Origin: Amoebophrya sp. A120
Lineage: Eukaryota > Protista > Dinoflagellata
Length of the DNA: 64,000 bases
Reading direction: 5' to 3'
Assembly: GCA_905178155.1 (NCBI GenBank)
Contig: CAJINV010000003.1
Coordinates: forward strand, 4,215,253 to 4,279,252
The translations under genes were made by a program, and so were the position numbers. Positions 1,824 to 64,000 of this stretch are shown here, piece after piece. Every line of letters starts with the position of its first letter. The stretch's first letter is position 1. Under the pieces are notes generated by a model. The model was not told the origin of the DNA. It did not search any database and saw nothing but the letters and a program-made list of their open reading frames with translations.

Positions 1824-4800
1824 CTAGAGTGCAAGCCAGAAGTTTTCGCGGTCTTTCGGCCCTTCTTCTAGCAACACTTCCCCGTCGAGCGTGAGGATGC
1901 GACCCGCCATAGGGCGCCCCGCGAGCTGCTGCCTGGCGAGTTTCTCGAGAAAGTCGAACCCCACGTCCTGCAGCGGCAGGCAGTTCATCACCAGCAACCG
2001 GAGCCGCTTGATGTTTTGCTCGGTGAGAACGAAACTTTCGACCATCTCGTTCTCCGTCGCCTCGTCCTCTTCGTACCGAGTTAAGGAACCGAACAAACGG
2101 AACCCCTGTGCGACGCAGTCCACATCCTTGACGCCGTTCTTCTATCAACCAAAAAAATTTCGTCACGATCACTCATGCGTATTTTTGCAATACAAAATTT
2201 TTTGTCATGCGTAGAAACGCACCACCGCCAAACTTCATAAGGGATCTCCCTAGTAGTGGTTCTGCAATACAAGGAAAAGCTGTGATGCAAAAAAGTTTGT
2301 AATGCAAAGCCTGCAAGTTAGTGACTGCGAGTGCGACGAACTTTTTTCTTTCCATATCTCCTCGAGGAGAACCAACACCCATTCCACGAAGTTGATGCTC
2401 TGCTCGCGCTTTGCCTTGCCAAAAAGCAGGTCGCGGACGCTGGTGCAGAACAGCAGGTTGGCGAACGTCGACAGCAGCTCCAGGCACAAGTTGGAGCTCG
2501 TGGAGCAGTACTTCTTCCCGGCCTTCAGCAACGTCGCGATACCATTGTTCTCTTGGAGAACCGTCAACAAGCTGACTTCTAACACAGGCAACCCACCGGC
2601 CATGGCCATTACCTTCGTGTTTTTATTTTTTTTAGAGTGACTAGGACTACGATAATCTCCGCCAGTCCCAGTTCTAATTGGAGTAGAAATGCGCTACTGG
2701 TAGTGGTACTGACGGTATACCACAAATACAAAAAGAGCAGCACCCAACAACAGCCACAATGACAATACATCAAATTGCGCAAGCCCGAGTAATATCGTCG
2801 ACTCATCCGCATGATCTCCATCCACCGCAAATCAATGATGATCGGTGAAAAGTGGATTGTAAAAGCTAAATGTAAATTTCATCAAGATCAGATTGCAAAA
2901 AAATCACATAAAAGCAAATCAAATCTACCTTGACGCAGTTGGCCGCTTTGGCCTGCACGGAGACGCTGATCCGGTCTTCGTTTAGAATGCGCAGGGGGTG
3001 TTTCATCCCGGGTAGCAAGTACTGTCGCAGCACCGCGTTCTCGTGGCTCAATAAAGCCAGTGTCTCGAGACAGGGAACGACGACGCTCGGGCTCTGCATC
3101 GTGTCCTCGTCCACGAGGAAGTGGTCCAACATGTTTAGGAACGACTGCGCAATGGGTTTCTCGTACTCGTCGATATTCTCGCTGCCCTCGGCGAGCACGC
3201 GGAGGGTGTTCACCAGATACTCCCGGCTCTCCAGGTCGTTCTTCAGCAGTCCACCCATGGTCAGGAGCGTACGGAACACGTCGGAGAGGCTCGAGCCCAG
3301 TCGCTGGTCGTGCAACGCGCAGGCGTGGAAAATTTGCAGTGCGTGCTTCAGCACCGACTGGGAGTCGGGGTGCCGTTTCACGGTCAAAATCACCGACCGC
3401 AGCGCGTAGTGTGCGGTGTGCACGATCTGGTATCAAATGTAAAAATGTCTGAGTCTGGAAACTTGTGATGCTGGGTGGCGTATCATGAGGAGGCCACAAG
3501 TGCTCGCTCAGCATGACAAGTTTCTGAGCTTCTAGGTGTTGCCTATTCTGCATGCCAAACTGCGTTTCTACATGACAGAAAAGTGGCGCTCTTGGGCAAC
3601 GTGCATGACAGATTTAAGAGTCATGCCAGACAAGCATGACAAACGTGCATTCTTCCAGACCCAGACATTTTTACATTTGATATCTGGGCCTTGGAGACGA
3701 CGCACAGCAGCGCGATCACGCGCAGAGTCGACCCACACACCTTCCGGTTTTCGGGGGACAGGTCCAGCACCTGGCAGAGCAGCTCCAGTAAGGAGGAAGA
3801 CCGTCCGTGCAGCACGGCATTGCCTTTGTTTCGCGTCATGCGAATGTCCGCACCGTCGCGGGCGATTTTTCGCAAGTGCTTACTGTTTAAGGCAGCTCCT
3901 GCGGCCCCATCGGCGGAAGAACGACCACCGCCATGGTCACTGTCTCCCCCGGCATCTTCGTCTTCGTCCTCATTCCGAAATCCCCCCGACGCCGCGGCGA
4001 AATCAAACAGCCGCCCGCCAGGCACCGATGCCGAGCTGAAGAGCGCGGAGGGATCGTCGAGCAATAGATCGGCGTCTAGCTGGCCCTCGTCCACCAGCAA
4101 GAGGTTCCCGTCGATCGCGTAGTGCAGCCGATCCAACTGCTTCTTCTGGGTTATCGCAAGACAAAAGTGCTACAGTCACGCATTGTGTTGCAAGGCCGGC
4201 AAGACTTCAGTGACTACAACCTTTGTCATGCAAGAAATGCTTGCGGGCCTTGTCCGTTTCATATTACGTGTCTGCTCATTCCATACGAAAAATGTCTGCA
4301 ATGCACGTTTTTTTTTGTCATGGAGCGAAAGCTTGTTTGTGTTTTCTGAACTTACAACAAATGCGTGGTACCTGGAGCACTTTCTCTTTACATATGGATC
4401 GGCGGTCGCACACTGGGGCGCGCGGCCGTCGAGTGCGGCCCGCCATTTTCCTCGGTCTCCGCCCGGGCCGCCATCGTCGGCCGCAGCAGGAGCCGGTCGT
4501 TCCCGAGATGATTGATCGTCAGCTCGTAGATGTTCCCCAAAACCAGCAGAGCGCGCACGAGCAGGCGCGGGCTCGCTTTGAAGCGCAGCAGCGCCCGGAG
4601 GCAGTACGCGTGCTGTTCGAGGACGCGGTGCGCCGAGCGACACACCAGGAGAACCTCGAAGAGCGATTCGTAGGACGAAAGCGTGAGGAATCGCTGGCGC
4701 TCTTGACGCGCGTTTACCTGGTTTGCCCCGTCGTCGTCGGCAGCACCGGTTGCTTCCGCGAGGGTCGACGAAACCAGATTCAGTTCGCGGTGGTTGGCGG

Positions 4801-7800
4801 CGACGGACTTGTAGCGGGTCCAAAACTCCTCCTGACCGCGGCCACCTGGGCTGTTGTTCGCCGCGCCCGCTCCGCTGTCTATCGCCACAACCTCGTCGAG
4901 CAAGTTTCGGTATTGTTGTGTTTTTTTCCGCTTCGTGCGGTCTTCCGCCTCCAGCCGCCGTGCGATGCGTTCTTTTCCCTCGACGAGGTCCAGCGCAAAG
5001 TCGAGGTGGTCTTGTACAATCAAACACTCCGGGTGGATGCACTCGGCGAGTGCGTCCAACACTTTCCATTGCAACATTTCCTCCTCGATCCTCATGGGCA
5101 CGTGCAGAGAGTGGAAAACCGCCATTTGAAACTGGTGTCGGTGCTCGGGGACGGGAACCGACGAGTCCACGTGGACGCGGTTGGCCTGTTGCAGAAGCTG
5201 ATCGACTTCCTGGTCGAGGTCCTTGGCGGCCTTCTTCGCGTCTTTTTCCTCGACGTCCTCGTCGTGCAACGTGTACCCGGCGACGACGTGTCTCCCGTCT
5301 ACTCCCTGGAAGGGGCTCCCGCGCCCGGCCAGGTTCTGGTTCAGGTTTATGATCGGTTTTTGTCCGACCGCGGCGGCGAAGCCGAAATCCGCAGTCGCGA
5401 GATGCGTTTCCTTCTTCAGGTCCTTGTCTAACTTATCCGTTTCCCGAATGCGGGACATCCACGCGGCCGCCAGGGGAGAGGGGCTCCACTTCACCTGCAA
5501 TGCCTTCCGCATGGACTCCGAAAACCCCCCCGACGCAGTACGGCGAAACAGGAAGTGCAGTGGACGCGCACTGTAAAACTTATCCAGCTTCTGGGCCATG
5601 AAAGAGAAATCCTTTTCCACGTGCGCGGCCTTGTTGGACGTAACGCAGTGGCTCACGACGAGTCGATCACCGACCTGCAGTGCGTTCTTCGCGGCCCAAC
5701 AGTCGGCTCCTTCTATTTGTGTGATGCTACCTGCGGCCGGCGGCACGGGCGGCTTGTAGTCTTCCGGGTTCGGTAGAGACGCGGGACCCCCGCGTAGGTG
5801 GAGGTCTCTTTCTTTCTCTTGGTCCTCTTTTGTCAGCTCGTGCCCGTTCGCGATCTCGAAGCCCAGGTGGCCGGGCTCGGTGACCTCAACTTGAACGTAT
5901 TCGGAAAAATTCTCCTTGCGCAAAAACATAAAGTTGCAGGCCGGTGGCTGCGGGTGCTCCTGCGCGGCCTTGGGATCTTTTTTTTGTCGTTCGTGGTGCT
6001 CCTTCTGCTCGTGAATGACGCGCTCAATCAGCGCATCGTCGGGGTCGCGCCCGGGCCACTCGTGGATCTCCGAGATGGGGTGTCCGGCGAACAAAAGCAG
6101 GACGTCGCCCGGGACCAGTTTGAATTTGTACGCTTGCGTCTTCCCGACCCCTCGGGGCGTCAACTTCTCGGCGCGCAACAACCGCACGAGCGGGTACTCC
6201 TTCCAGTACAACTGAAAGCCAAAGAGGTGCAGAAATTTATCTCGGCTGCTGAGGTGTGGGTCGTGGAGCGCGTCCACGTCGAGATCCTTGGCTTCGACCT
6301 GCCAGCCCACCACCCCGGCTTCCTTCGGACTGAGGCCGCGGGCGAGCTGCGACAGCAGGTAGGGCTTCATTCGCGGTGGCGGTCCTTTCTTGCCCTCCTT
6401 CCCCTTCCCCTGGCCTTTGGGCGGCGGCTTCGCCGGTTCGGGGAAAAACAGCATCCGGTTCCAGGGGATGCGCTCGGGGTCGTAACTATCGCGCAACTCG
6501 TGGCGATGAAACAGATCCACCACCGCAGGGTCCTTGTGACCGGGGACCTTCTTCCCGACGTCCGGGTGCTCCCGCCAGGCCTGGGGCAGTTGCAGCGTAA
6601 AATCCTCCTGGTTCTTGTAGTGCTCCCGTGTGTATGGCTCTCCACGGCGAAACAGCACCGATAACGGCCGAGGGCCAGTGATGTCCATTTGGTGCTGGAG
6701 GGACGCTTCCAAGGCTTCTTCGGTCTGGTAAAGACCGCCCTTGTCCGGGGGGATGAATTCGCACAGCGTGCGGCCGATGGCGATCACGCGATCACCCTTT
6801 TTCAGTCCGCGTGATTCGGCCCAACCCTTCTTGGCCATTCTTCGAACGAAATACTTCTGGAAGTCCATCTCGAGGCCATGGTCAGGGCGGTCGATTTCGA
6901 GTTGCAAGTACTGGCTCTCGAACTTCAACCGCAGAAACCAGAAGTTGATTTTCTTCTTCGCTGTGACCTGCTTCACGCAGTGATTCACAATGGCCTCGTG
7001 CGGGTCCTGCCCCGGCCAACTAACCAGCTCCGTCACAGGGCGGTCGTTGATTTTCAGCAACAGGTCCCCCTTGCCGACCTTTGCCTTGAAAGCGCGCGAC
7101 GGCTTGGTCGGGTCCATCACGTCCTGCTCCACCACTTTCGTGACGCGAATCTGCGGGAACTTGGTGAAATCCAAGGCCATTCCGAACAGACTCGCCAACT
7201 TCTGCCGCCACGTGACCTTTTTGTCCTTGATCACCTTTGCGTTCAAACTACTCTGCGCCCACATCGCCAGGCCGAGCTTTGGTCCTTTCAAGCTGTCGGC
7301 CAACAGCAGTATCTGCATGTAGGGTGCGCCCTTTGGGTTCAGCAGTGCGTTTTTGACCATGCGGAGATCCTGTTTTGTGAACACCTTTTCCCGTTCCGCT
7401 TTCACCGCTATGTCCATGTGCTTCTGCTGCCGCATCAGGTTCAGAAGCGCATCGATTCCCCAGTAGTGCAGCCAGGGGTTCCGCGGGAAGCGGCGCAGGC
7501 AGTCCAACAATAACGTGATCAGCTGACTCGCTAGGGAGCCGTAGGGAAGCCGCGGTTCCCGTGCCAGGGCGATCGCGTACTCGAGGACCAACTGTGCCTG
7601 GCTCTGCATGTCTCGTCGCTTTTGCAGTGCCGCCTGCGACGGCGACGATCCAGGTTTTATCGCCGCGGCGGAGGCGGTCCCGAGTCTGCCGTCGTGCTGG
7701 AGCTGGAACAAGGTGGAGTACAGCTCCCCGATGGTGTAGCGGAATCGTTTGAACGACTGGAATTCCAGTGTTTCGTACACCGTGTCGAGGCTGCGCAACT

Positions 7801-10800
7801 TTTCCAGGACCTGGTGGAAGTCCAGGGCGTCCTCCTTGTCTGGCAGTAGCTCCAAATCAAAGTCCTCGATCAAACAGGCACCGAGGTCGGGCTCCAGGGG
7901 GCGCAAGTGCGGGAGCGGAATTCCGACCCACTGAATTTTCGGCGGAAGCTTCAGTTCTTTCGGGTGCTGAATTTGGAAGGCCGACTCTTCGTTGCGCTGC
8001 GCACCCAAATCCCGCTCACGCAGCTCCATCTGTATCCTCTGCAAGCGCTGGGCTCGTTCCTGGTCCGCTTTCGTGGAGCCGCCGAGAAAGATTGCAGGCG
8101 GTTTCACAACGCCTGGTGCACCCTGATCGTCAATGCGGACTCGGCCGGCTCCTGGACTACCACTTGCTTGATGTAGTCCCGGACTACCTGCAACGCTCAT
8201 TTTCGAAGCGGTTCCCGGAAGCCCCGCAACCGCAGCTTGGATCGCGCTCCCGGGCCGTGACCCTCCTGCACCTTGGTTGTTGACAGCGGCAACGACCATG
8301 CCCTGCTCATGGTCGAACTCCATCATGCCCGCGCTCGCAAGCAGCGGCGAAGTTGCTGCGTCCTTCAGGTGCTGGTCATAGTGCTCGAAGGTCGTACCTA
8401 GCAGGACCTGTCGCTCCTCCAGCTCCTCCATGTGCTGGTTGTGGGCGTGCTGCGCACACTGCTGCAACAGGTTGACAGGAGGGATTTCGCCCGCTTCAAT
8501 CGTCTCCAAAATGTCGATTTCGGGCGGCGGGACCCGGGGCCGCGCGGTTTGGTTCTCCAGAAGCTGATCGCGCACCGCATTCTGCTCGGAGGTCAGGTTG
8601 TCCGGATGAAAATCCTCCTTGTGGGCTAGCTTGTGTTGATCGCCGACCAATCGCTGCATAGCCGCGGTTTGTCGCGCCACCTCCGCCTCTGCCTCGTCGT
8701 CGGTCGAAGAGTCAAAGCAGGAGAAAACTCCTTTCGGCTTCGTCTTCTTTGGCTTTGGCGGCGGGGGTAAATCAGCCTGGTGGGGCTGGTGTTTGTGCGC
8801 AACACCTGTAGAAGTTGCCTGACCGGCCTGCCCGGCACCGCTGTAATGTTCTACTGTTCCATGACGTTCCTGTGCAAGAACATCATCCTCGGGGTAGAAC
8901 AGAAATTCCGCCCGCCCATCCTTCCTCGAATTTTTCACGTCCTCGATAGCAACCTCCAGCACTTCTGTGTCTCGCAACGGGACGCGACCGTGCTGCGCAC
9001 GCTCTGCCTTCAAACGCCGCATCTCCGCCTGCCCCGCGGCCTTCACGGTTTGTCGCAGCTGCAATTTGTCCTCTGGCGTCAGCTGAATCGCTTCCCCTGC
9101 GTGCTTGGTACCATCAGCGCCCAGGTCGCGTTTGCTGCGAAGCTTCATCAGTTCCTCGGCCGCCTCCTTTTTCATGAATTGGCGCACCCGCTCCTCGTCC
9201 TTCCGATCGTGAACGATGTCCTCCAGCCGGACTCGCTCCGCAGGATCCTCCAACTTTCTTTTCGCTAACTCCTCGAGTGTCGGGCCCTTTTTTTTCTTCT
9301 TTTCCTTTTCCTCGTCTTCCAAGTCTTTGCGCTTTTTCGTCTCCAGCGCGTCTGCATCCTCCGCCCCTTCGCTGGAAATATCGCTCGCATCCTCCCCCTC
9401 CAGCAAAGCCTCGCTCTTGGAACGGACAATCTTGCCGCTTCCTCCTGCGTCAAACATTGCCCCGGAGACGGACCCTCGTCGTCCCCCTGCTCCTGCTGCA
9501 GCGGCGGACTTCTGCTTCTGCTTCTTTTGCTTTTGCCTTCGTCTTGCCTCCGCAGCGGCGGTGATGCCGCGGTACTCCTGCAACCGCTGCTGGTCCGCCA
9601 CTGCCTCGTGTTCTCGTTGGTCCAGCAGGTATTCGTCATACAGAGGCTCCGCGTCGCGTGCAAAGTGGTTTTCGCGAATGCTGTCCACCATGCCGCCGCC
9701 ACCCTCGACCACGATCTCCTCCTTTCCACTGGCGTCCCAGGCTTTCACCCGCTCCACAATACCGTACTGCGAGGCGACGGCTTCCCCGCTTTGGGCCGCG
9801 CTATCGTTCCAAGACTGGGGAAGATAACTCTTTCCCTGCGGGCTTCGTCCACGACCCGCTCCGGGCGTCATGGGCGACATGCCTCCATCTCGCGCGCCGG
9901 CAGCGGAGGAGCGGGAATCGCGGACGACGCATCTTGCTCGCAGAACCGCGTCGGATCCAAAGGCCTGCACCAGCCGTTTTGACTTACGCGACCAGATGGG
10001 CTGAACGGCATGAACCTTGCCCGACAACTCCCCATTTCGCACCCGGATACTCACCTGTGCCAGCGGGTCGGTTTCGTCGAAGGTCGTACGTCGGCTGTGC
10101 AGCGTTTTCCCTCGGCTGCCGGTTGGCCGCTGCTCGTCCGGGGAAACAGAGGACCCATCCGCCGCTTTTTCGTAGAAAACGATGTGGAACCACAGTACGT
10201 CGTTCGGGTCCGCACACTTCTTCTTGTCTAGTGGAAAGAACAACCGGCGGTAGAACGGCACCAGCGAGGGATCGAAGCTGGAACTGATAGTCGCAAACCG
10301 GCGCTCCGAAATGACGGCCTCGCGTTGACCCGCGTCAAGGGGCTCCCCACGCAGGTAGTGGCGCCAGGCGGTCGGATCTCCGGCCGTATCGGTGCACACA
10401 CGCAGTGACGCCGCAACGTCGGTAAGCTTCAGCCTGAAAAGGTTCGCAATCTTCTCCAGTGCGTGCACATCGACGTCAACCTGTGGACCAAGATCCCCCC
10501 GTGAATGTTCGCCAGCACCAGTTACTGCAGCACCTGCCGCCGACCCCAAGAAGCTTATCGCATTTGCCTGCAAGTCTGTGTTTCCACGGCTTTCATGATC
10601 CCTGCTTCTACTCAAGGGAGAATTCATCGCGATGGCTTGGTTTCGAATCTCCTGGCGCTCCGCTTTCATCGCGTTCGCGTTGATCAGTATCGGCGTCGGA
10701 TCCGCGTCCTGGTCTAGCTTTTCCTGCCAGCCTGCCTTCTCCGCGCGCTTCGGGATCTGCAGCTCCCCCGTGGTCGGGTCCACCGGGACCACGACGACAT

Positions 10801-13800
10801 CCTCCGGGTCTACTTCTACCCCAGTGTCGTCTTCGTCCTGCGGCTCGTCCTCATCTCCGCCGCCGCCGCCCGCCCCGCCGGCAGCCGGGATCGCGTACAT
10901 GGATTCGTAGTACTGGTTTCGGCTGTGCCTCTCCGCGTAAAACTGCGCCTGCTGTTCGTCCCGGACCTGCTCTTGCAGTTCCGCCTTGTAGCGCTCTTGC
11001 TCCATGCGCTTCTGCTCCTGATCGGCGATCATGTCCCGCTCATTTTGCGTGATGAAGTTGGCATCCAGCAGTTGCTGCGCCGTCATCTCGTTCAGCGCTT
11101 GGGTCACTTTGCGGCTCAGCTCCCCGGTGACGGATTGCAGACGCTCGCCCTGCGACCGGAGGTGCATGAAGGTGATGTCTAGTCCGTCTTTTTGCGTCAG
11201 CGAGTTGATGCTGGGAGGAATCGGCCGGCGATGCCGCTCCTCTGCTGCGAGTCGCGCAGCAGCTTCATCTCCGTCTGGATCGTCTGGCGCTGCGTTATTT
11301 CCACCAAATTGGTCGAATTGCATTCCCGGCACCTCGCCCGCGGCTCCGGAGAGGGGAAGAGTGGTGTTCGCAATTGAATTCGCCGCGCCAGATGCGGCGT
11401 TTGATGTTCCACCGTGGTCACCAGCCGTCTGGTACATTGGGGCATTGATGGTCGTGGCCGGCACGGTGTACCGCATCAGCTCCTGGAACCGCGCCAAAGC
11501 GTTACGGGACTGACACACAGTCTTGTACCGTTCCTGCAGTAGTGCGAGCTGTTCCTGTGCCTTCGTAGGGTCGTACAACTTCGGTTCCTGCAGCAGTGTC
11601 GCTAGCTCCGGTGCGGCGTCGGCGGCACTCGCGGATCGAGCCATGATACCGCCTCGCTGTTCGAGCGTCTGTAGATAGGAGGTGACGTACAACTGGCTCG
11701 CTTGCTCCTCCCGCAAGCGCATCTGCCCGGAAACAGTGGAGGAGGAAATCTTCGTGTCTTTCTTCACACTACTTTCGTCCTGACTCGCTCCGGTGAAGGG
11801 CTGAACAGGCATGCCCAAGGAGGGATGTTCTGCGGCCAGATTTTGGCGGAGTTGGCCTTGCATGCGTCGAGACGGATCGACTGCCTCTGCCACGTAGCGC
11901 TGCATGTCCGATACGTTCTGCATGCGTAGCAGCTGGTCTGCGGTGTACAGATCGTCAACGGACCGGACGTTGTCGTAGCCTGCCATAATTGCGTTCACAT
12001 CGTAGTATTGACCAACCTGAAAGCCCCCCGCCGCGCCAGCAGCGGGAGCCAATCCTGGTTGCTGCGCCCCCGCTGCCCCCACCTGCTGCTGCGGAGCCAA
12101 CGACTTGGCCGCGGCGATCGACGCAGCTGCGGTGGCGTTTGGCAGGTCGAAGTTTGTTTCTTGTTGCGACTGGTTATTCACAAACTTCCCCGTGGCGGTC
12201 TGCCCGCCACCGGTAGCTGAAGAGCCCGCCGCTGCTCCGTGTGGCCCTTGGGCAGGGCCTCCATCGAGGCTATCCACCATGGGCGGCACAGTTTTCCGCT
12301 TTTCCAGTGCGGCCTTCCAGTTCGACGGCAAACTTCGAAGCACGCTTTGCACCGCGGGGGATGTCAGTGCTGCACTGTCGAAACCGCCTCCGCCGCGCCG
12401 GCGTACCAGCAGACTGAGCGGTCGATGACCCTTGGAAGACAAGAGCGGCGCTAGTTCCTCTGGTTTGTGCTTCCGCGGGGGCTTGTCGTTGATGATCAAC
12501 AGTTGGTCTTTTGCCTTCAAGTGGCACTTCGCTCCAAACGTGCCGGATTTGGGATCTTCCTTTATTTCGCCCGTGCTGCCGCTGATTTTCAGTCCGAGGC
12601 TGATGTCGTTCGTGGTCAGGTGCACTTGAATGAACTCGTTTTCGAATTCCGACCGGAGAAACATGAACATGACCTTCTGGTACTTTTTCACCTTTCTGGC
12701 GAGGAAATTCAGCACCGCCGACTCGACGCTGCTACCTTCCATTTTGGGAATCGAGGTCGTTCGCTCGCCCCCCAAAACCAGCAACCGGTCACCAACTTTC
12801 AAACCGCGCGTAACGGCCTCACTTTTTGCTCCCCGGGCACGCGGCGTGGTTGGATGCACACGAACAACACGAAGGTTCGGGAAGGTCGCCCAATCCAGCT
12901 CAAAGCCAAACAGGAGCAGAATTTTCTCCGCCGAGCTCGTCGAAGAAGACATTTTCGAGACCTTCCCGACCAACTCCTCGGCGTCTGGCATCTTCTGCTC
13001 GTAGTACAACAGCGCGCTGCTCATGCTGTCCGCTGACTGCGTGGCTCCAAAAACGGACAAGAGAAATGGTGCGTCCGCTCCGCTGGCCGCGGCCGAAACC
13101 TTCTCGCCCCCGCCAGCAGGAGTAGTTGATGACGATGCACCAACCGCGCGAGAAGCGGTTGCGCTTGGAGGTGACGAGGAGCCTCCTTTGCCTTTATTCA
13201 AAGGCGCGTACACCTTGGCCCAGTGCGTCGCAATGTCGGTGGTGTTGCTGTGCTGGTTTTCCAACAAGTGTGCCGAAAACGCGGCGTGTGGCCGATGCAC
13301 AAAGAAATTCCGGCTGGTTTTCAGCAGCTCGACGATTTGCGAATCTTCCCGTCCGGTGCAGAATTTGTCGCCCGCAACCAAGAGCTCGTCACCGTCTTCG
13401 ATTTGTAGCCCCGAGGGATGCAGGTGTACGCCGTGGAAGGCGGACGTCTTCAGCATCGTTTTCTTGCCGTCCGGACCCTTGTGAAACATGCTTGCGAAAT
13501 CCGCGTTCTTGTCCAGAATTTCCACATTTAGGTAGTTCTCCGCCTTCTTCTTCCGGTGGAACACGAAGCCCCAGGAGGTCTGACTCGGGTCATTGTTTTT
13601 CTCCTTCACCTTTTGCCGCAACTTCCCGAGCAGCGCAGCGTCAGGGCTCTGGGGAACCGGGTCGCTCGACGACTTCGGAACGAAGCGGACCACGTCCGTG
13701 ATGACATACACGTCCGCTATGGTGGCCACCATGTCCCCCACCACGAGGCCGGCCTTGGCCGCTCGCGTGTCCTTGTCCACGGCGGTGAGCGCCACGCGAG

Positions 13801-14413
13801 GCCATTTGCTCCAATCCAGCTCGATTCCGAACAAAGAGCGCAGCGTTCCCTTAGGATCGTTGTTGATGTCATGATCTACATTCCACTTGTCGATGCTCCG
13901 CTGCTTCCAGCCCGTGAAACCAAACTCGCGCAGCAAGCTAGCCCCGCACTTGATCGCCAGCACGCCGGCAAGGTAAGGCTTGTTGCTACTACTACTGCCG
14001 GACCCCGACCCCGACTCTGGCATGAAAAGAAAGGGCGGGCCTTCTGGCTTCGCGGGCTCTAGGTAGCCTTGGTGCCGCCTTCTCTTACTTCCGTGACTCG
14101 AAGTGGAACTTGATGTCGCCGGGCTTTGGTCCCCGCGCCGCTTGCGAGCGGAAAACCGGATAGTTCTGGCATTTGCTGCCGGAGATGTTGTACTATCCGG
14201 TCTCGCGCCAAACCGGTCCTCCGCATCGATATCAGAATCGTCTGTGACGAGTACGGAGGAGGATGACGAAGTAGAGCTACCGGACAACGACGAGCTGCTC
14301 TCGCTTCTGCAGTCTGCCGTTCCGCGTTCGCCGGGCCCGCCCGCTTGTGCGGAACGCGTGGGGGCCCCAGACGGACGCGAAAACCCAATTTTGTAGTTGC
14401 CATGATACGCCAT
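1824..14413 (-). CDS. Giant (~3849 aa) protein with four tandem pairs of PDZ-like domains, a coiled-coil/low-complexity centre and a helical (ARM/HEAT-like) C-terminus; 5 exons
   Basis: 3341-aa ORF 4388-14413 continues through exons 14413-4395, 4146-3683, 3425-2929, 2612-2357, 2137-1824 (sum 11550 nt = 3850 codons, ends TAG). Repeated module LFG(F/I/M)xL(D/Y)(W/F)xx(W/F/Y)Px(V/L/I)...G(L/V)xxGDx(L/V) is PDZ-like. One GT-AG intron (2613-2928) and three TIR/TSD introns. Confidence 0.8.
2143..2356. mobile_element. Introner A: TAT...ATA MITE-like element acting as a non-canonical intron
   Basis: Degenerate TIRs (tatcaaccaaaaaaatttcgtcac vs rc tatggaaagaaaaaagttcgtcgc, similarity extends ~65 bp). 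TSD tcttc 2138-2142 / tctcc 2357-2361. Removing 219 nt gives LLEE-NGVKDVDC and removes an in-frame TAG. Confidence 0.8.
3431..3682. mobile_element. Introner B: TAT...ATA MITE-like element acting as a non-canonical intron
   Basis: 30-bp TIRs 3431-3460 / 3653-3682 (29/30 identical, TATCAAATGTAAAAATGTCTGRGTCTGGAA). Perfect TSD TCTGG 3426-3430 / 3683-3687. Removing 257 nt gives VSKAQ-IVHTAHYAL in frame. Confidence 0.93.
4152..4394. mobile_element. Introner C: TAT...ATA MITE-like element acting as a non-canonical intron
   Basis: ~43-bp imperfect TIRs 4152-4194 / 4351-4394. TSD tgggt 4147-4151 / tggat 4395-4399. Removing 248 nt gives VRPPI-QKKQLDRLHY in frame. A GT-AG alternative 4146-4411 is also in frame. 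Confidence 0.82.
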
Positions 14414-15508
14414 AGCTACAAACTGGTCGCCAAGAAAATTTCGGTGTCAGTCGGTCGCTCGAGGGGGTGCATGTGGCAGCACACACTCCGCCAAACGGCG
14501 GCCACCGCCAGCGGATTTAAAAATTCCACCAGCTGCTGAGAATGATGTACTGAATGTTCTGCGAAACGACCTCACCGACCCATCCTCGGTTAAATAAAGT
14601 TCCATGTCGGTCTGAATGGGAGAGATAATCATTGAAGTCAGAAAGAAGACGAAGATGCCCATTGCATTTGCAGGGTCGTTCCTCCGATTCGTCCAAAAAC
14701 AAAACACACTTTTTCGCTCACGAAAATCGCATTTTGAAGCCTACTCGCTTCTCAGATGAACACTTCTCTCTCGACAAGGCGACACTCAAATTGTCTTGTC
14801 CTCTGCAAGCAAGTTCCCTCGTCAACAGACAGTACAAACTTCACTAGGCACAACGGTAAATAGCATTCCCAACGGGTGTAGGCAGCGTACACCCGTGCAG
14901 GAGAATTAGAAGCGAAAAGGTTCCCCTTCAAGAAAAAACGCCGAAAAAAAATGGAAAACGATCGGCATCATGATCGAACACAGCGCTGCGCGACGTGGTG
15001 TTCCTCCTGTTGGTTAGTCTGCGTTGACCACGACATTCCGGACTCCATTCTCAACAACGAACAAAAAGTAAAAGCGAAATCCTCAACACTGTCCATACGA
15101 AACGATCCGGGAAATTCCGCGACATGTTGACACTCACGTCACTGCTTCTCCGGGAGCAGCATGATAGTTGTCACTCTGGCTACTGTAGAAGTGTAAGGAT
15201 GAAGTCACAGTCAGTGTCAACAAGTTAGAACGAACATTCTTCTCAAAGGTAGCAAAACAGTACAGATAAACGTCATATGCAGCTGCAGCTCGTCAGCCTA
15301 CATATATGCAAGAGAGTAGTGTAGCTGAATCGGTAAAAAATCTAGGTCTAGGTTACGAAGCAGTCGCAGATCGATGAAAAACATCCCGGGAGAGGGGGAA
15401 ATCAAATACAAATTCCCCGTTTTATACATCAAAGCCAAAACGAAAAGGGAAAGAATTACGGACTGCTAATGCTCTACACATGCTAACTGTACGATCGGTA
15501 GATCAGCT

Positions 15509-19045: not shown

Positions 19046-20591
19046 AGGCGCGCGCGGCGGCTTGCGCCTCCCGCGGGCCCAAAAACCTACCCGGCCCACG
19101 AGCACGGAAGGCGCGCGCCCGCCGGCGCCCATTTTGGCGCGAGGAAAAGTAGGCCCGCGCGGCGGAATACGCCTCCCGCGGGCCCAAAAACCTAGCCGGA
19201 AGGCGCGCGCCCGCCGGCGCCCATTTTGGCGCGAGGAAAAAAAGGCCCGCGCGGCGGAGTACGCCTCCCGCGGGCCCAAAAACCTAGCCGGAAGGCGCGC
19301 GCCCGCCGGAGCCCATTTTGGTGCGAGGCAAAAAAGGCCCGCGCGGCGGAGTACGCCTCCCGCGGGCCCAAAAACCTAGCCGGAAGGCGCGCGCCCGCCG
19401 GAGCCCATTTTGGTGCGAGGCAAAAAAGGCCCGCGCGGCGGAGTACGCCTCCCGCGGGCCCAAAAACCTAGCCGGAAGGCGCGCGCCCGCCGGAGCCCAT
19501 TTTGGTGCGAGGCAAAAAAGGCCCGCGCGGCGGAGTACGCCTCCCGCGGGCCCAAAAACCTAGCCGGAAGGCGCGCGCCCGCCGGAGCCCATTTTGGTGC
19601 GAGGCAAAAAAGGCCCGCGCGGCGGAGTACGCCTCCCGCGGGCCCAAAAACCTAGCCGGAAGGCGCGCGCCCGCCGGAGCCCATTTTGGTGCGAGGCAAA
19701 AAAGGCCCGCGCGGCGGAGTACGCCTCCCGCGGGCCCAAAAACCTAGCCGGAAGGCGCGCGCCCGGCGGAGCCCATTTTGGTGCGAGGCAAAAAAGGCCC
19801 GCGCGGCGGAGTACGCCTCCCGCGGGCCCAAAAACCTAGCCGGAAGGCGCGCGCCCGCCGGAGCCCATTTTGGTGCGAGGCAAAAAAGGCCCGCGCGGCG
19901 GAGTACGCCTCCCGCGGGCCCAAAAACCTAGCCGGAAGGCGCGCGCCCGCCGGAGCCCATTTTGGTGCGAGGCAAAAAAGGCCCGCGCGGCGGAGTACGC
20001 CTCCCGCGGGCCCAAAAACCTAGCCGGAAGGCGCGCGCCCGGCGGAGCCCATTTTGGTGCGAGGCAAAAAAGGCCCGCGCGGCGGAGTACGCCTCCCGCG
20101 GGCCCAAAAACCTAGCCGGAAGGCGCGCGCCCGCCGGAGCCCATTTTGGTGCGAGGCAAAAAAGGCCCGCGCGGCGGAGTACGCCTCCCGCGGGCCCAAA
20201 AACCTAGCCGGAAGGCGCGCGCCCGCCGGAGCCCATTTTGGTGCGAGGCAAAAAAGGCCCGCGCGGCGGAGTACGCCTCCCGCGGGCCCAAAAACCTAGC
20301 CGGAAGGCGCGCGCCCGCCGGAGCCCATTTTGGTGCGAGGCAAAAAAGGCCCGCGCGGCGGAGTACGCCTCCCGCGGGCCCAAAAACCTAGCCGGAAGGC
20401 GCGCGCCCGCCGGAGCCCATTTTGGTGCGAGGCAAAAAAGGCCCGCGCGGCGGAGTACGCCTCCCGCGGGCCCAAAAACCTAGCCGGAAGGCGCGCGCCC
20501 GCCGGAGCCCATTTTGGTGCGAGGCAAAAAAGGCCCACGCGGCGGAGTACGCCTCCCGCGAACCCAAAAACCTAGCCGGAAGGCGCGCGCC
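19046..20591. repeat. GC-rich 92-bp tandem repeat array, ~17 copies
   Basis: Unit CCATTTTGGTGCGAGGCAAAAAAGGCCCGCGCGGCGGAGTACGCCTCCCGCGGGCCCAAAAACCTAGCCGGAAGGCGCGCGCCCGCCGGAGC. The identical 81-aa ORFs in the ORF track start every 92 nt. Edge copies are diverged, the interior is near-identical. Confidence 0.97.
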
Positions 20592-35130: not shown

Positions 35131-37830
35131 TCAGCCGTCAGAAAATTCATCCTCCTCCGCCGGTTCTTCGGCGAAAATGTCTTCGTCTGCAGCGTCGCCA
35201 TCTCCTGGCACCCCCTCGTCGGCGTCGTCGCTGTTCTCTAACGTTGGTGATACAACGAAGTTCAACTCACCACATTCGTGCTGCAGCGGCAGCGTAAAGA
35301 TCAGCGGGTACTCCCGACTGAGAAATATCAGCACGGTCTCGGCAACAGGGAGCCCCGAACCAACCATGATGATCGATTCTGTCGTAAGGAGAATTTTGGT
35401 TACTTCATTTTCGCCACTAAAAAATGTAAAAAAAATAGTTTCAACTTTTTGGCTCATAAAATCCACAAAACACTGAATGACACGACAGAACCTGAGGAAA
35501 ATAAAAAAGACATGCTGATGGTTGGATATGTACCATTTCTGAAGCGGCATTTCTCTTTGCTGTCGAAACCCTCTTTCCTGTTAAGGAATACTTGGTCTTG
35601 ATTAGGTATTTCGAGCTGCTGCTCTAACGTTCCAGCAACGATGAAGTCCACACTCATGCCACCGGTTGCGTTCTCGGAGCCAAACCGTATCATGTCCACT
35701 GGTTTCGATATTACAGTGAAAAGTGCCCCCCACCCCTGAAATTGCAAATATTTGTGATGCGCAGTTTCCAAATGAAAACTTTTTGTCATGCATGAAAGGA
35801 GTATGAATCTTTCTGATGCAGAGTCTAGTCGTGTTTCGCATCGCTTGCATGACAAGCACCGCTCTTCCTGGGATCTTTTGCAATACAAATTTTTGCTATT
35901 CACGATCGGAAATCTGTGATGCTGATACATGCAAGAGGGCGAATGTTTCATTTGGAAAGGTTTGCAATACAAATACTTTCAAGTTCGGGGGTGGGGGCAT
36001 TTTTCATTCTGATATTCGAAGTGCCGTCTTTCATGTCCGTGAAGTCCTCAGTGGGGCACTTATTGTGAGGAAAAATCCCCTCTCCCCATAAATATCCAAA
36101 ACGAAATTTGTGTTGCTGTATTTGAGGCGTGAGGCGGCAATGATCACACTTAGGGGAGGTGGAGCGGTCAGTTGCTGTATTTGAGTACACAAATCGATTT
36201 GTATTGCTAGAAGGCCAAGAGACGAAGCTGCTCCCTCGTTTGCAGGCAATTGGTCATGCTGTTTTCGGTTTCCAGTTGCTTTCTGTCATGCAGAAGGCGC
36301 AAGGCTTTCCTACGCCAGCCAGCACTACAATCCGCATCTCTTCCCTTCTAGCATGACAACGTGATTTGTGGCCACAAATCATGCTACACAAATCTCTCTT
36401 TCGGTATGGAGAGGGGGGATTTTTCATTTTGATAACACTGGACGTAAACCTTCGACTTTTTCTGGTCGGCTGTTGTGCAAGTTTTGCATTTAATCATCCA
36501 TGATCTGGGTGAGGATTTGACCTATCCGAAAAAAAATGAAAAAGAAGAACGCAAAGTAGCGGCTGGCCCAACAAAATTCTCCCTGGTGCTGGTCATTCAA
36601 CATCAACACTTTTGCTTTTCGTACAAATAAGAACATCAGGATCTCACGGTTCGCTAGTTCGTGCAAGGTGTCTTGGACATATCGGAAGCTTGCGACCGGC
36701 ATCTGGAGCCTTGTCGCGTCGTCTTTCTTGGGCGGTATTTCGAGCGCTGACTCGTTCCCGACTGGTAGTATCCTAATTTTGAATTCGTTCAGCTTGAAAC
36801 CGCTGCTTGCCTCTTGCTTTTTCTTGCTCTTCGGCGCTCCTGCCGCACCGTTTGCTTCGTTGGCAGCGTCGATTCCCTCTTGTATTCTTTCTCCCCGTGG
36901 ATCTAGCAGCGCAATCGACAGCGTTTCGCGGTCGACTTCCGTATCATACAGCAGATAGATTATCTGATACAGTAAACGCAATGGTTGTGTAATTGTGGCA
37001 GGCTTTCGTTTTTTGTTTTCACTTTACTTTCCATGATGAGAATGTCTAGCTATGTGCAACAAACATCGACCAAAATCGTCTCTACTAAACAAAAACATAC
37101 GATACACAAAGAAAGTCAGGGACATCACAAAACATAGAAAAATGGTACATCTCTTGTCTTGCAGATCTTGAGCACTTTGTTGATAAGCTGCAAGTCGACA
37201 GAGAAAGTGAATTCGCCGCTTTCCTCACCTTCCGCGGGCTTGTTTGTGGTCTCCACATCGTACAGGTCGAAAGCCTTGTCGGCTTCCAGCGACCATTGCA
37301 CGAGCGACACCTGTGGTAAAGCAAGTAGATCAAGCCGTGTAAATTCATGGCCAACTTTCAATCATCCATCTGTCCATCGCATCTATGTCTATGATTTCCT
37401 GAGTCTCCAGCGCAACATCGCACATTGTGCAATCTTGAAAATAGCAGTGAATGGTATGCTCGGCCTCGGCCTCAGACGCTGTGTGGGAATGAGAGCAAAC
37501 ATGAAGGCGCCCGAGCCCGACCCCGACAACACGGTTAAAAACGGGCATAGTATCTTATCACTCTCTTCATCACAGCAAATCCAATGCACTTACGTGGTTT
37601 GCATCTATCCCGATGTAACTCAGCCGTTTTTTTGTTACTTTCAGGGTGAGTTTTTGAACGTCGGAGTCGTTTTTCTTGTCTTGTATGCTCTGTGCGCAAT
37701 TCACAAGCGTCTTGAAGAGGAACTGGTCCTTGAATTTGCACTCAAACCGGTGCTTTACTTCTTCTTCTTCGTCCTCGTCGCCATCCTCCTGCTGTTCTTG
37801 CTTGATGAGAACATCGCCCTCGTCGGCCAT
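35131..37830 (-). CDS. PCNA: Divergent PCNA-family sliding clamp (~410 aa), 7 exons
   Basis: Exons 37830-37594, 37310-37149, 36963-36648, 36469-36435, 36055-36015, 35703-35534, 35402-35131 (1233 nt). GIDANHVSLVQ ~ SMDSSHVSLVQ; VDLQLINKVLKICKTRDII ~ VNLTSMSKILKCAGNEDII; LQMPVASF ~ VKMPSGEF; LPVAETVLIFLSREYPL...LNFVVSPTLE ~ TPLSSTVTLSMSADVPL...LKYYLAPKIE. The last acceptor is the least certain. Confidence 0.82.
35709..36014. mobile_element. Introner D: TAT...ATA MITE-like element acting as a non-canonical intron in the PCNA-like gene
   Basis: ~70-bp imperfect TIRs (35709-35778 / 35946-36014). Perfect TSD TTCGA 35704-35708 / 36015-36019. Removing 311 nt gives MKDGTS-KPVDMIRF in frame. Confidence 0.92.
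36061..36434. mobile_element. Introner E: TAT...ATA MITE-like element acting as a non-canonical intron in the PCNA-like gene
   Basis: 30-bp imperfect TIRs 36061-36090 / 36405-36434. TSD gcact 36056-36060 / acact 36435-36439. Removing 379 nt gives SKVYVQC-PTEDF in frame. Confidence 0.88.
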
Positions 37831-42647: not shown

Positions 42648-43658
42648 TCGTTGCTGCGCCGACCAGGCTGCATAAGCAGGTTTTCACCAATTCTTTCGAA
42701 GAGGATACCGGTGTTGATTCACAGCACGAGAGAGATGATGTTGTAGGGGGGACAAAACTGTTGCAATCGGTTATATGTCTAAGCACCAGAGGCACACTAG
42801 AGGGGGTCATGGGTACAACAAAGAAAAAGGCACGGAAGTTAAAGGGCAAAGAGCTATGTCGCAGAAATTCAAAACTTGACCTTCCAAAAATGAACGACTA
42901 AATAGCGGGGCGGCTACTTGGTAACAACTAACAAGTTGAGTTTTATCATATTCCTATTGCTATCGCTATCTCTAATGATGAGGGAGAGGTGAGTCCGTGG
43001 GTCTTAATGCGTTCAGAGATATTTTGGTACACCACCACGACCTGTGCTGGAAAAAAAAAATCAGGGGGGCTCTGAAATACGCTTCCACGTATAGACGACT
43101 GCTTTGACGGCGGGATGCCGGTTTTTGTTTTTCCAATATGTGTTTCACTTTCACCGAGGACAATGCAGTGCTGGCGTTAGTCTACTTGTCACAGGTGCAT
43201 ACATCACCGAAGCGACACTACGTCTTTTTCTTCAAGCATGTGGCAGCACCGATCCGTCATGTTCATCACAATTCGACCGCGACCGAAAAATACTCAAAGT
43301 CACGAGGTAAAACGAGCATACAAGTTTTGAACGACACATTGATCACCGACACGGATTCTCATAATCGAGAAGTTTGACCGACTCGTTCTGTGCAAACTAC
43401 TTCAACATCTTGATTATGATTTAGAAATCATGTGGTCACGACATATTACAGACCATGATTGGCTGAACGAACACAGACAATGTCTGTACTGGGTTAGAGG
43501 GGTCGCTGTATATGAGTTGTAGCACGGTCGTTAGAATTATGGTCGCTGTAGCAGATGACTAGCTACTCAAATTTATTTGCGCTAGTACTAGCCGTACCGA
43601 TATCCTCCATCGATCCGGATCTGATAAAGGAATGTGATGCGTTGGCGTTCTCGGTGTG

Positions 43659-46007: not shown

Positions 46008-47425
46008 CTTCGTTTGGCTTTTTTGTCACTTTGCCTATCGTCGTTGTTTTGGCTCCAGCTTTGAATCGGACTCGACGTTATTTTATTCCTTACATGATCA
46101 GTAGCGTTCGTAATGTCGTAATAGTAAACAGATCCACGCGTTCACTGTTTGTCTCAATGTCAATCGCGAGTTGCGGCCGAAAATTTATCAACATGTGCGA
46201 TGAAGCGGGAATTCAAAGTGATTTCCTCCCACGTAGCAACCGGAACTGTTCAAGGAAACGAAAAGGGTATTTCGACTGAACATTTAGATCGCGATCGTGG
46301 ATCCATAGTACATCCGTCGAGCTCTATCTAGCAACAATGATCACGTGGATCCAGTTTCTTGTTAAAACATAAACTTCACACAGGATTGCAACAAGCTCCA
46401 CGCGCCTTTTCTCCGATAGCTTCGAGGACCGTGAAAATTAAAGCCTGCGCCACACAAGACCTCCAACACGTTTGCGATGGCCAGTGCATTATTCATTTTT
46501 GATGATCTCCGCATTTTCCTTTTCGTCGGAACTGCTTTTAAATCGGTAATCTTGATCTTCCTGTTCCTTGTTGGTCATCTTGTATGGTACATCAAATGAT
46601 TGGTCACCAGTTCACGGCTCCATGCAATTTTTTAGTGCACTAGCTCGCTGCCAGAACATCAGCTGTTCTTGCAACAGGTGGCAAACAAACCTGGCGACAT
46701 TTTTTAGCAACACTTCAGCATCGCCGGGGTTACTACGCATTCCTTTTCCAGGTGTTCCAGATGTCCGTCTTCAGGGTCAGGGCACGAACTACCTAGTAAC
46801 CAAAATTTCTTCTGATCTTCTTCGAAGTTTTCCTCCTGTGTTCTCGCGATAAAAAAAATTGCAACTAACAACCCGAAAAAAATGCCGACTAATCATCAAT
46901 TTTTGTTTTGCTTTTGAGCATGGTTCGTTTACACGGCATCGATCCTATTCCTAACACATGCCACCCGTATCTGATACTGAGCTCACCCTAACACTTCTTT
47001 TTCGTGAAACTAAAGCGTGCGAGGATACTTAGTTGTCAAGATTCCATTCGACTTAGCCCTCAGCGTCAGATGCACATGCAGTAGTAGCTCCTACTTTTCT
47101 TCGACGTGTTCCCGAAAGTATTTGATATCATCGCTTGCTAGAATCGAAAATCAGAGTAAGTAAAGTTCGTGTTGAAAGTCAAATTGAATGCCAATTGTTT
47201 TGAAAACGTGTGAAAGACAGCCACGATCGTTCTTTATTAACAAAGCTCACAGCCAGTGCGATCTCTCAGAGTCGCGGTCTCGTCAACTCAAACTCATCAG
47301 AAAGTAAAAAGTTCTGTCGTCGTTATGTGCTCCCACCAGCCACAGCACAACACTATTTATTTCACTTTCGAACAATAGTTCCCCCGTCGTGCCGGTCGGC
47401 GGTACTATCGCACGTTCCCCTACAA

Positions 47426-48778: not shown

Positions 48779-49003
48779 CTGTGCCTGATGAAGTCATGAT
48801 TTTTATGGCTGCTTTTATTTCGTTTTTCAAAAGCTACAATTGCATACATTTACATTCATAATACTCAAACTACTTGTATATTCATTGACCACGTGCTGTT
48901 GTATCTTCCTTTCCATAGACTCTAAAAAACTGAATGCCATTCAACACGAAAGCCAGTACGATCTAGATCTATTTCGTGGTTGTACTAGTACTTCACATAA
49001 TTT

Positions 49004-54922: not shown

Positions 54923-54972
54923 TAGTAGTAGTAGTAGTGATTCCCAGCAAGGGGAGTAGTAGTAGTAGTAGT
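54923..54972. repeat. (AGT)n microsatellite, two short tracts
   Basis: tagtagtagtagtagt and agtagtagtagtagtagt in intergenic DNA. Confidence 0.7.
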
Positions 54973-61500: not shown

Positions 61501-64000
61501 CGTATATTTCTTGCACCCCAAAACCACCGGAGTCCGCGAAAGCTTGCACGGTCAAATCAGTCGGCGGCACCGCTGGAGAAACCCCCAGTTCAGCGCTGGC
61601 GTCCGAAAACGCCTGTTGTACCGTCTGCACGAAACTGGGATGCCCAACAAACTCCGCCGGCGAAACGTCTGCCGGAGTCAGTGTCAGTAGCACCTGCAAT
61701 TCACAGCTAAAATCGTACGCCATGGTGATGGTACTTGTTTCGGAGAGCCGGCGGGCTCCAAGATGTTGGTCGGTGCTCGAAGAGAATGATGCAGTGGCAG
61801 GGCTGCTGGACTTTTTGCTCAACAGCCGCGTTGCAGCCTCGGCCTGCTCCTCCTCGTCTAGCAGCTCCTCCTCGGAGTCGACCTCATCCACGTGCCCCGG
61901 ACCAGGCGTGTACAGCAGCTTTCTTCGCCGTTCTTCGCGCCGGAGCTGCCGGCGAGTTACCGGCTCTAGTGCCGCAACCTCCAAAACTCGGAAATGCTCA
62001 GTGTCGTCCACCAAGGGATTCTTCGGGTGCTGACTTGATACGTCATCGTACTCATTACCGTTCAGCAGGTTCCGGATTTCCGTGTTTTGTCGCAGCGCTT
62101 TTGAAATCGCCGTCCTAAACGTCATTGTGGGAAACGAGTTTGGCGGGAGGACCGCATCTACGAAGTTCGGCAACGAGTACCACTTGCGGAGCGTGAAGCG
62201 AATTTCGAGGTTGGCTGCCCGCTTCGAGAGATCTTCGGTGTAGGTGAGCGCCGGATTGGGGTTTCCGCCTACCGTGAAAGGGACGGTGCTGAGCTGAACC
62301 TCCGCAACATCCGGACTCGTCACGCCCGCCGCATTCGGCATGCCGAAGGCGTTCGCCAGGCCCTCTGCGAGGGCCTCCTTGACCCCATTCACCTGCATCA
62401 GACCGATGTTTTGGGGCGTGCCGCCTCCGGTGCCGCCGACTTGCACGCCGTCGTTGACCGTCCAAGCCTGATTCGGATCCAGTTGTCCACTCGCACCGTT
62501 CCACGTGGAAGCTGGAGGCGTCTGCAGGTACAGAAACATGCGATACGTCTTTTGCGTCACCCTGCAAGCCGTGGTGTACGGGGTCTGGTAGAAATCCGTG
62601 AAGCAGTTCGTTGCACCAGGGATACTGTTCGACGAGGAGTCCGCGAAGTACAAATTTCTCGCCGGTTCCGTCGCCGCGGCCGCCATCTCCTGGTTTGGAT
62701 AGAAGTACCGGTAAAGCGACACATCCTCCGACGGTACGTTTGCCGTGTACTGTCTCGACAGAATACCCCGAACACCAGCGGATTTTAGCCCCACGGGGTA
62801 GTTGTTCACGTCCAAGCGCTGCCGCTTCGGCGACGCCCGCGCGCACGACTGCACTGTGCTCACACTCAAAGTCGTCAGACCGAGGTTTTCCACAGCCTCG
62901 TCCGTCGCATTGCTCGAGTTTGTGCTGTTGTCCTCATCGCTAGAGGATAAAAACCGTCGCTGAAACAAATTCTGTTCTACTTGGGCCGCCGCTGGCGCTT
63001 GTAAAGTAGAGTACCACGAGGACGATAACCCCAACGTCGCATCCTCCTCCCCCGTACCAAAGCCTGGCTCCGAATCGTCAAGTGGGGGAAGTCCGAGTCT
63101 TTCCCGCTTGATCTCCAGCAGCTGCCGCCTGCTCGAGCCAGCCGAAGAGGAGCTGCTCGACGAACTGGTCGAAGAGTCTTCGCTGCTCTCCGCCTTCACG
63201 TTCGATCCCGTACGGATCACGATCTCGGAACTGTCTATCTGGATTCGGTAGGGCCCCGTGTTAGAAAACGGCTTAGTGTCGTCGTCCAACTGCATCACCA
63301 TGTCGGCGTAATCTCCAGTCATGCTACTGGCCATCTGCCCGGTCGCGTGGTGCTTGTAGCGAAACGCGAGACCGTTCGCCATGATGTGCAGCACCTGCGT
63401 CTTCTTCTCTGCGTTCACCTTCTCCGACTTGATCGCAGTTACCAGCTCGTGGATGCCCATGCCCTGGTCCAGCTCCACGGTGAAGTTGCTCTCGTTTAGG
63501 GCTTTCACGGGGAAGCCGGCCTTCGGCCCTAAGCTGGCCTTCACAATCCGGTAGCGGTCGATGATGGAAGCAATGGTGGCGTTGCCGGAGGAACCGTAGG
63601 TCTGAATGGTCGTCGGGTCCAGCGCCATGACTTCACTAGCCGGAATGTCGCCGTCCGGCCGGTATTGACAAACGTACTCGTTCTTCTCGTTTCGGTTCGT
63701 CCGTCCGGAGTACAGCTCGTCGTACGGGCAGACCTGGCACTGGTTGCCGTTGGCCGCGTATCCTCTGCAAAAGTATCGTATTCGTAAGGCAATCATGCAT
63801 TACAAATCTTTTCATTAAGTCAAATCCGCATTACAAATTTTATTTCTCATGCTGAGAAAATTTGTAATGCATTTATACGATTACGATACTTTTGCAGTTC
63901 ATACCGCGCGAAACTCCGTGGCGTGGCCAAAGTACCCGTGCAGAATGACGTCGCCGGGCATGTTCATGCGCTCGCACGGCTCGGACACCGCCACCTCGGA
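55568..64000 (-). CDS. Giant (>2750 aa, 5' end outside window) membrane-anchored surface protein
   Basis: 2742-aa ORF plus an upstream exon (64000-63904, SEVAVSEPC...HATEFRA) joined through introner F. WADGICDCNCGRPDWDC Cys motif, SEA-like segments, Pro-rich repeats, and one TM FLAFVGAYIGYIGMVAAFLTMW followed by an acidic tail. Confidence 0.8.
59140..59375 (-). repeat. Coding tandem repeat, ~42-bp unit (PAGPDAGKPDP(T/N)P(A/S))
   Basis: About 5-6 imperfect copies of GPDAGKP(D/N)PxP in the giant ORF. Confidence 0.85.
63759..63903. mobile_element. Introner F: TAT...ATA MITE-like element acting as a non-canonical intron
   Basis: 28-bp TIRs 63759-63786 / 63876-63903 (24/28). Perfect TSD CCGCG 63754-63758 / 63904-63908. 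Removing 150 nt gives HATEFRA-ANGNQCQVC and removes an in-frame TGA. Confidence 0.92.

Follow-up and report, generated by a model that had tools for sequence, protein, structure and literature searches.

How can a gene tolerate short transposons within its coding exons when the insertions offer no splice sites at their borders? This question is raised by a 64,000-nt stretch of the Amoebophrya sp. A120 genome (contig CAJINV010000003.1; hereafter the window), in which six elements, designated E1–E6, interrupt coding sequence (Table 1). The six are introners of the type described from strain A120: they have the arm signature, the flanking direct repeat, and the dispersed families of that class, and E1–E3 are removed exactly from transcripts, independently of GT-AG sites. 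Exact removal of E6 is supported by comparison with homologues. The reading that we favor, with a probability of roughly 0.6, is that short, noncoding DNA transposons of the A120 introner type insert into exons, are mobilized by a shared transposase, and are removed exactly by an altered spliceosome. A first-pass annotation of this DNA, which had described the elements as transposons behaving like precisely excised noncanonical introns, is supported as a whole; it missed an octamer that recurs within the elements at a spacing of 31–33 bp.

Six elements in coding exons

All 64,000 nt were scanned for TAT…ATA termini whose arms align and whose flanking 5-bp direct repeats differ at no more than one position. 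E1–E6 were the sole returns at an arm score of at least 6, and at a score of at least 8 there were five matches in the window versus one in total in 20 dinucleotide block shuffles. No seventh element was found in the window by a general repeat-plus-arm scan or by a motif-cluster scan. The annotated TAT…ATA ends are present in 6/6, and all six elements share an arm plan of TAT, seven variable bases, and a run of A (TAT-N7-AAA). The accompanying claims of a direct repeat and of terminal inverted repeats (TIRs) need qualification. The two copies of the 5-bp repeat are identical in E2, E4, and E6 but differ by one mismatch in E1, E3, and E5 (in E5 at the position adjoining the 5′ arm in the mRNA sense), and E2 alone has near-perfect arms (30 nt, 97%), those of the other five being imperfect at positions 4–8.

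The host frames of all six elements lie on the minus strand. As the annotation had argued, each gene would otherwise be broken: no sense frame of any element is free of stops, and E1 and E6, whose removal takes out multiples of 3 (219 and 150 nt), would break their genes by stop codons rather than by a frameshift. It was also correct that no GT-AG register gives exact excision; none exists in any of the six, GC-AG included, and in-frame GT/GC-AG alternatives are found within 20 nt of each.

Transcripts decide between these possibilities for E1–E3. Four runs were aligned to window positions 1500–6500, of which X3 and X6, two samples of one study, are presumed RNA and X1 is DNA. In X3 and in X6, one contig skips 219 (E1), 316, 257 (E2), and 248 nt (E3). 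The gap of 316 nt corresponds to an ordinary GT-AG intron, of the kind that the annotation had noted in the same genes as the elements, and the zero depth within it indicates that both runs behave as RNA. The other three gaps have exactly the predicted lengths. The DNA run X1 reads through the junctions and contains 0/4 of the joints, and for the sequenced DNA, excision at the DNA level, as for the eliminated sequences of ciliates, can be rejected. Use of nearby GT-AG sites for E1–E3 is excluded by the reads of X3 and X6. The main contig in both runs is the spliced form, also for the weakly folding E1 and E3 with their mismatched repeats, and neither an arm indel nor the repeat mismatch prevents exact removal of E3. 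In both E1 and E3, position 2 of the retained repeat comes from the upstream copy, which places the cut 2 nt or more into the repeat.

The spliced E1–E3 product aligns with its homologue P0001 at 51% identity without a gap at any junction, and E6, once the element and one repeat are taken out, is gap-free across the junction against five homologues. As to empty genomic sites in relatives, the homologues P0001, P0002, and P0003 continue through the junctions, but such sequences could themselves derive from transcripts. For E6, a GT-AG register of the same length lies 11 nt upstream; its use would replace a Phe kept by four of the five homologues, and it was rejected. E4 and E5 share a small multi-exon host gene (window 35131–37023, minus strand) that may resemble a sliding clamp. 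Pfam returned no family at E ≤ 0.05 for three open reading frames around E4 and E5, all of them unspliced pieces, and the PCNA-like sequence that the annotation mentions is unconfirmed rather than excluded.

In a further raw RNA run with the same species label (X9), about 90 reads carry the E2 arm (window 3651–3684) on a different flank, with the host exons uncovered. These reads stem from a copy at another locus that is either retained in RNA or present as DNA carry-over.

Table 1. Coordinates of the elements and other features of the window
Feature	Position	Direct repeats	Strand	Remarks
E1, 214-bp TIR element	2143..2356	2138-2142, 2357-2361 (1 mismatch)	host gene minus	5 octamers
E2, 252-bp element	3431..3682	3426-3430, 3683-3687 (exact)		30-nt near-perfect TIR; 4 octamers incl. 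31-bp pair; high-copy family
E3, 243-bp element	4152..4394	4147-4151, 4395-4399 (1 mismatch)		arms offset by 1-nt indel; 3 octamers
E4, 306-bp element	35709..36014	35704-35708, 36015-36019 (exact)		6 octamers incl. 31-bp pair; excision inferred
E5, 374-bp element	36061..36434	36056-36060, 36435-36439		4 octamers; excision inferred
E6, 145-bp element	63759..63903	63754-63758, 63904-63908 (exact)		3 octamers incl. 31-bp pair
Ordinary 316-nt GT-AG intron	2613..2928		minus	same gene as E1–E3; skipped in X3, X6
Large upstream exon of E1–E3 host gene	4395..14446		minus	PDZ domains; X3 transcript contig of 12,225 nt
Pfam Dus	22955-24889		minus	
Pfam KH	25954-27303		minus	
Pfam RING	39801-42683		minus	
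Pfam 2OG-Fe(II) oxygenase	43662-46025		minus	

The elements belong to dispersed families. The E2 arm leads into other flanks in at least 130 contigs of X1, and it matched 134 metagenome loci, of which the 80 listed share the assembly prefix JACKZZ01; the loci amount to 386 kb in all, and because they were picked by one arm, the E2 family is over-represented among them. Each of the six elements has at least one relative there over at least 60% of its length. E2 gives 81 such alignments, some of the loci overlapping, and relatives of E4 are up to 95% identical. A profile of 474 arms shows the same arm plan. By arms alone, 263 elements were found; 206 of them have an exact 5-bp repeat and 32 a repeat with one mismatch, so that at least four of the five positions match in 238, and repeat lengths of 3, 4, and 6–9 are near chance. 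With TIRs, a target-site duplication (TSD) of constant length, and short, noncoding, multicopy bodies, the elements show these features of miniature inverted-repeat transposable elements (MITEs).

The loci also extend the frame argument. Both flanks were confidently framed in 107 of the 251 elements with 90-nt flanks, on the same strand in 98, and removing the element plus 5 nt restores the frame in 96 of these 98; the frames of the two flanks were called independently, and the removed lengths fall almost evenly over the three phases (30/34/34). At one locus (L034), a 972-bp element sits between residues 1091 and 1093 of RPB1, in a conserved block.

The same RPB1 gene holds five detected elements in 6 kb along with ordinary introns. 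Three long elements, L034:3001-3972 (972 bp), L021:3862-4492 (631 bp), and L074:1176-2220 (1045 bp), have normal ends, exact repeats, and unrelated interiors, that of L074 enclosing short tandem repeats; they may hold captured DNA or be what is left of a longer parent. Element density is about 1 per kb in the fetched loci, which were picked for holding one, compared with 6 in the 64-kb window, where very long exons of 3352 and 2743 codons are free of elements. In 90 of 203 oriented insertions, the repeat begins at codon position 3 (63 and 50 begin at the other positions; chi-square p = 0.002), and there is no target-site base preference to account for this excess.

What the excision machinery can read

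What could recognize such insertions in RNA? In the gene-oriented set (171 of 303 elements), the repeat shows no base preference at any position, and 15 elements offer an exact GT/GC-AG register. Mismatches between the repeat copies are spread flatly over the five positions (8, 10, 8, 8, and 7), and families are present in both orientations relative to the gene. The two arms of an element often differ at positions 4, 5, and 7 and agree at 9 and 11–13, so that conservation acts on each end separately. In a detection that ignored the first three bases, 21 of 511 arms proved to be non-TAT, always with an intact partner arm; the difference in decay between 5′ and 3′ arms was not significant (non-TAT, 6 versus 10; first base, 1 versus 6). 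Placing the cut from repeat mismatches in the loci failed, as codon scores were too noisy and 3 of 38 flanking exons matched Pfam; in an enoyl-CoA hydratase gene, the mismatch fell at a residue outside the alignments, and the cut was not placed. These constraints narrow the excision mechanism: it reads no junction bases, accepts either orientation, and tolerates change in one TAT end or one repeat base, and inserts of up to about 1 kb sit in RPB1.

We propose a fold-back of the two arms that places the ends side by side, with the cut falling within the repeat, 2 nt or more into its upstream copy. The presence of the same signal at both ends would explain why either orientation is removed. As the catalyst, an altered spliceosome guided by the ends of the element, and not by GT-AG, is the single most likely candidate, though we place it at slightly less than even odds. 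No U1 small nuclear RNA was found in A25 or A120, strains with such introns (PMC7789003), and a strain whose introns are canonical does have U1 (PMC12005148). This correlation between U1 loss and noncanonical intron type counts in favor of an altered spliceosome.

The first-pass annotation had suggested a second, structure- or protein-guided splicing route, and one that operates apart from the spliceosome may exist. In its most concrete form, an endonuclease acting with a ligase, or a domesticated end-binding protein, would recognize the paired ends, cut inside the repeats, join the exons, and free a linear or circular RNA. We consider this less likely than an altered spliceosome but a serious contender. 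It would sit well with the lack of base preference in the repeat, the scarcity of exact GT/GC-AG registers, the use of both orientations, and the exact removal of E3 despite its imperfections, and the nonconventional introns of euglenids provide a precedent (PMC11282704). Its products were not seen, however: there was no circle junction among the best 15 of 31 joints in RNA-labeled contigs, which rarely hold excised RNA. In addition, no candidate enzyme was found, and the correlation with U1 loss speaks for the spliceosome.

Phased octamers and a proposed mobilizing enzyme

If the junctions carry no common sequence, do the interiors? The octamer TGT[ACG][AT]TGC is present in 6/6 window elements. 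These occupy 2.4% of the bases of the window and contain 25 of its 34 octamer matches, compared with 9 in the other 97.6%. Among the loci, 324 of 327 unique elements and all 12 multi-copy groups contain it, with a total of 909 occurrences versus 22–40 in shuffles. Their spacing is phased as well. Of 568 same-direction pairs within 70 bp, 274 are 31–33 bp apart, where about 33 are expected (31–40 after position shuffling), and E2, E4, and E6 each have a 31-bp pair. Non-redundant sets (36–42 elements, 20 draws) contain 13–24 phased pairs against a null mean near 2, and 0/200 shuffles reach the observed phasing in each of the 20 draws. The phasing is seen in 9 of the 12 multi-copy groups and over 49 distinct spacer classes. 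Octamers facing inward start mostly 33–34, 41–44, 64–65, and 72–75 bp from the end of the element, and arm positions 7–13 resemble the 3′ half of the octamer.

Three turns of B-DNA correspond to 31.5 bp. A spacing of 31–33 bp is therefore the pattern expected of a protein that binds double-stranded DNA, and with octamers at 33–34, 41–44, and 72–75 bp from the ends and every 31–33 bp, bound proteins would be aligned along the same side of the helix. Octamers show fewer singleton changes than the body (1.5 versus 2.9 per 100, p = 1.5e-4) but are no better conserved than the repeats (4/340, p = 0.81; small numbers). Conservation relative to the body together with decay like that of the repeats is expected if the octamer matters for transposition and not after insertion. 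Judged from these patterns, the phased octamer is likely to be a binding site of the mobilizing enzyme. The octamer and its phasing would be an addition to the published class; no description was found in the portions of the literature consulted, which does not establish absence from print.

What enzyme might this be? The annotation held the mobilizer to be unresolved, yet a candidate type is in print: A120 introner family 38 is labeled Ginger, with a 5-bp TSD and TA/TA termini (PMC12130899, supplementary file 8, among the first 41 of 58 A120 rows). The 5-bp stagger and this lead point to a single integrase-type transposase. An integrase/Ginger-type DDE enzyme would cut its target with a 5-bp stagger and without sequence preference, and one transposase probably binds both the TAT-N7-AAA ends and the phased octamers. 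A single recognition code across unrelated bodies would explain how many families come to obey one end rule, and it suggests one code for the roughly 2,000 families reported. A degenerate form of the arm pattern gave three matches in viral contigs, with no repeat and no motif cluster, and these are attributed to chance.

Alternatively, the octamer array could be the site of a host chromatin protein, or the leftover of one ancestral element, and have nothing to do with a transposase. We regard this as unlikely, although no enzyme was found, the groups could share ancestry below BLAST detection, and one group makes up 167 of the 327 elements. Either is hard to square with the rarity of the octamer in the window outside the elements, with a motif and spacing kept over 49 differing spacer classes, and with positions fixed relative to the ends.

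Returning to the transposon reading with altered-spliceosome excision, several observations weigh against it. Mismatches between arms are of the G·U type in 114 cases and of the A·C type in 122, and without a bias toward G·U there is no demonstration of selection for an RNA stem; folding is strong in E2 (z −6.1) but weak in E1 and E3 (z −2.0 and −2.4). Conserved dinucleotides at both termini are found in no register, a difficulty for a spliceosome. The sense strand tends to be the motif-rich one (103 versus 65, p = 0.004; 203 of 327 elements oriented), an excess that a role in DNA only does not explain. With respect to the enzyme, a Pfam scan of 120 of the 221 long stop-free stretches of the 386 kb of loci detected neither a transposase nor an integrase domain, no autonomous partner with the same ends was found in these loci, and no transposase is evident in the three long elements (631, 972, and 1045 bp). 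In A120, likewise, no transposase was found by Farhat et al. (2021), who rejected the idea that transposases mobilize these introns in general (PMC7789003). Finally, the RNA label of the X3 and X6 contigs is presumed, and a single study supplied both runs.

Two further explanations dispense with splicing altogether. Proteins on the phased sites could loop the DNA such that nascent RNA of RNA polymerase II jumps from one repeat copy to the next. Signals that are strand-symmetric and helically phased, the upstream repeat copy kept in E1 and E3, and the lack of an RNA-pairing bias would all be consistent with such skipping, but repeat mismatches show an even spread across the five positions, removal also takes place where the repeats are mismatched, and arms with flanks from other loci occur in RNA-labeled contigs and raw RNA reads, where DNA carry-over is possible; we find it quite improbable. 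Least credible of all is that the skips are reverse-transcriptase template-switch artifacts at repeat-flanked hairpins, with the elements staying in cellular RNA: a hairpin with a short repeat is a known recipe for such artifacts, E2 folds strongly, and all transcript data are contigs derived from complementary DNA (cDNA), but every element has stops in each frame, one lies in the conserved RPB1 block, the spliced form is the main contig even where folding is weak and repeats are mismatched (E1 and E3), and frames are kept in 96 of 98 cases.

Two questions attach to this class, which is already published: what moves the elements and what cuts them from RNA. For the first, the phased octamer offers a concrete DNA bait with which to look for the mobilizing protein. 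For the second, exact removal of an insert from any position in an exon would be a new splicing rule and possibly a tool for conditional gene interruption. A more daring and rather doubtful idea is that all TAT-ended introner families of the lineage form one transposon superfamily read by a single protein through the phased array, and that the same protein, or a domesticated copy of it, also marks the element in DNA as it is transcribed and directs exact removal from RNA. If true, transposition and splicing would share one recognition code, and insertion into an exon would be harmless in either orientation.

Elsewhere in the window, a tandem array at 19105–20591 consists of 16.2 copies of a 92-bp GC-rich unit that are 99% identical and belong to no Rfam family; an Rfam search of window positions 1–32000 gave no match. 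Between 20897 and 63799, all long open reading frames are on the minus strand, forming a unidirectional cluster that includes four frames with Pfam domains (Table 1).

Relation to known introners and transposons

How do the elements compare with systems already described? Like the introners of Micromonas, Aureococcus, and Symbiodinium (PMC9860276), they are non-autonomous transposons with TIRs and TSDs that become introns and leave mRNA length unchanged. Those introners bring along or recruit GY and AG splice sites, whereas the elements here do neither, and U2-type GT/GC-AG termini are absent from all six (0/6). The nonconventional introns of euglenids (PMC11282704) come closer, sharing a TIR fold-back, TSD-like repeats, a lack of GT-AG, and a probable MITE origin. 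They follow a pyrimidine|purine junction rule with CAG/CTG pairing, in contrast to the lack of any junction preference here.

Among DNA transposons, Ginger2/TDD elements (Bao et al. 2010, PMC2836005) also have TIRs, and TDD-4, like TDD-5, carries a 5-bp TSD; our 5-bp repeat falls within the 4–5 bp of Ginger. The termini are different. Ginger elements end in TGTNR and Ginger2 targets RTATAY, whereas the present elements have TAT ends and no target preference; among 511 non-ascertained arms, 490 start with TAT and 1 with TGT. Ginger encodes a Gypsy-integrase-like DDE transposase, and no coding copy turned up among the 120 stretches scanned here. According to Gozashti et al. (2025), most A120 families are TIR DNA elements with the superfamily unassigned (PMC12130899), and the elements of the window resemble these families in being TIR DNA elements of about 150–320 bp. 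Family 38 in that work has the same 5-bp TSD, together with TA/TA termini and Copia-integrase-like homology; by description, which is the level of this comparison, it is about 810 bp long with coding remnants, and the six elements here are noncoding.

The closest match is the A120 introner itself. The annotation had linked the elements to Amoebophrya introners in general terms, and the link is tighter than claimed. In A120, inverted repeats start with TAT, followed by seven less-conserved bases and then at least three A, the borders have direct repeats of 3–5 nt (5 bp in the Fig. S19 legend), noncanonical introns average 240 nt, and the excision mechanism was left open by Farhat et al. (2021) (PMC7789003). 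An arm of TAT, 7 nt, and AAA is this published signature, and the class is thus already known. The A120 introners and the present elements also agree in their many families, their lack of GT-AG, their mixture with canonical introns in one gene, and their length of about 240 nt (PMC7789003). They differ in two respects: the published description, as far as it was examined, contains no shared internal motif or spacing rule (PMC7789003), and in place of a 3–5-nt repeat, the repeat here has a constant length of 5 bp and directly adjoins TAT/ATA in 206 of 263 elements.

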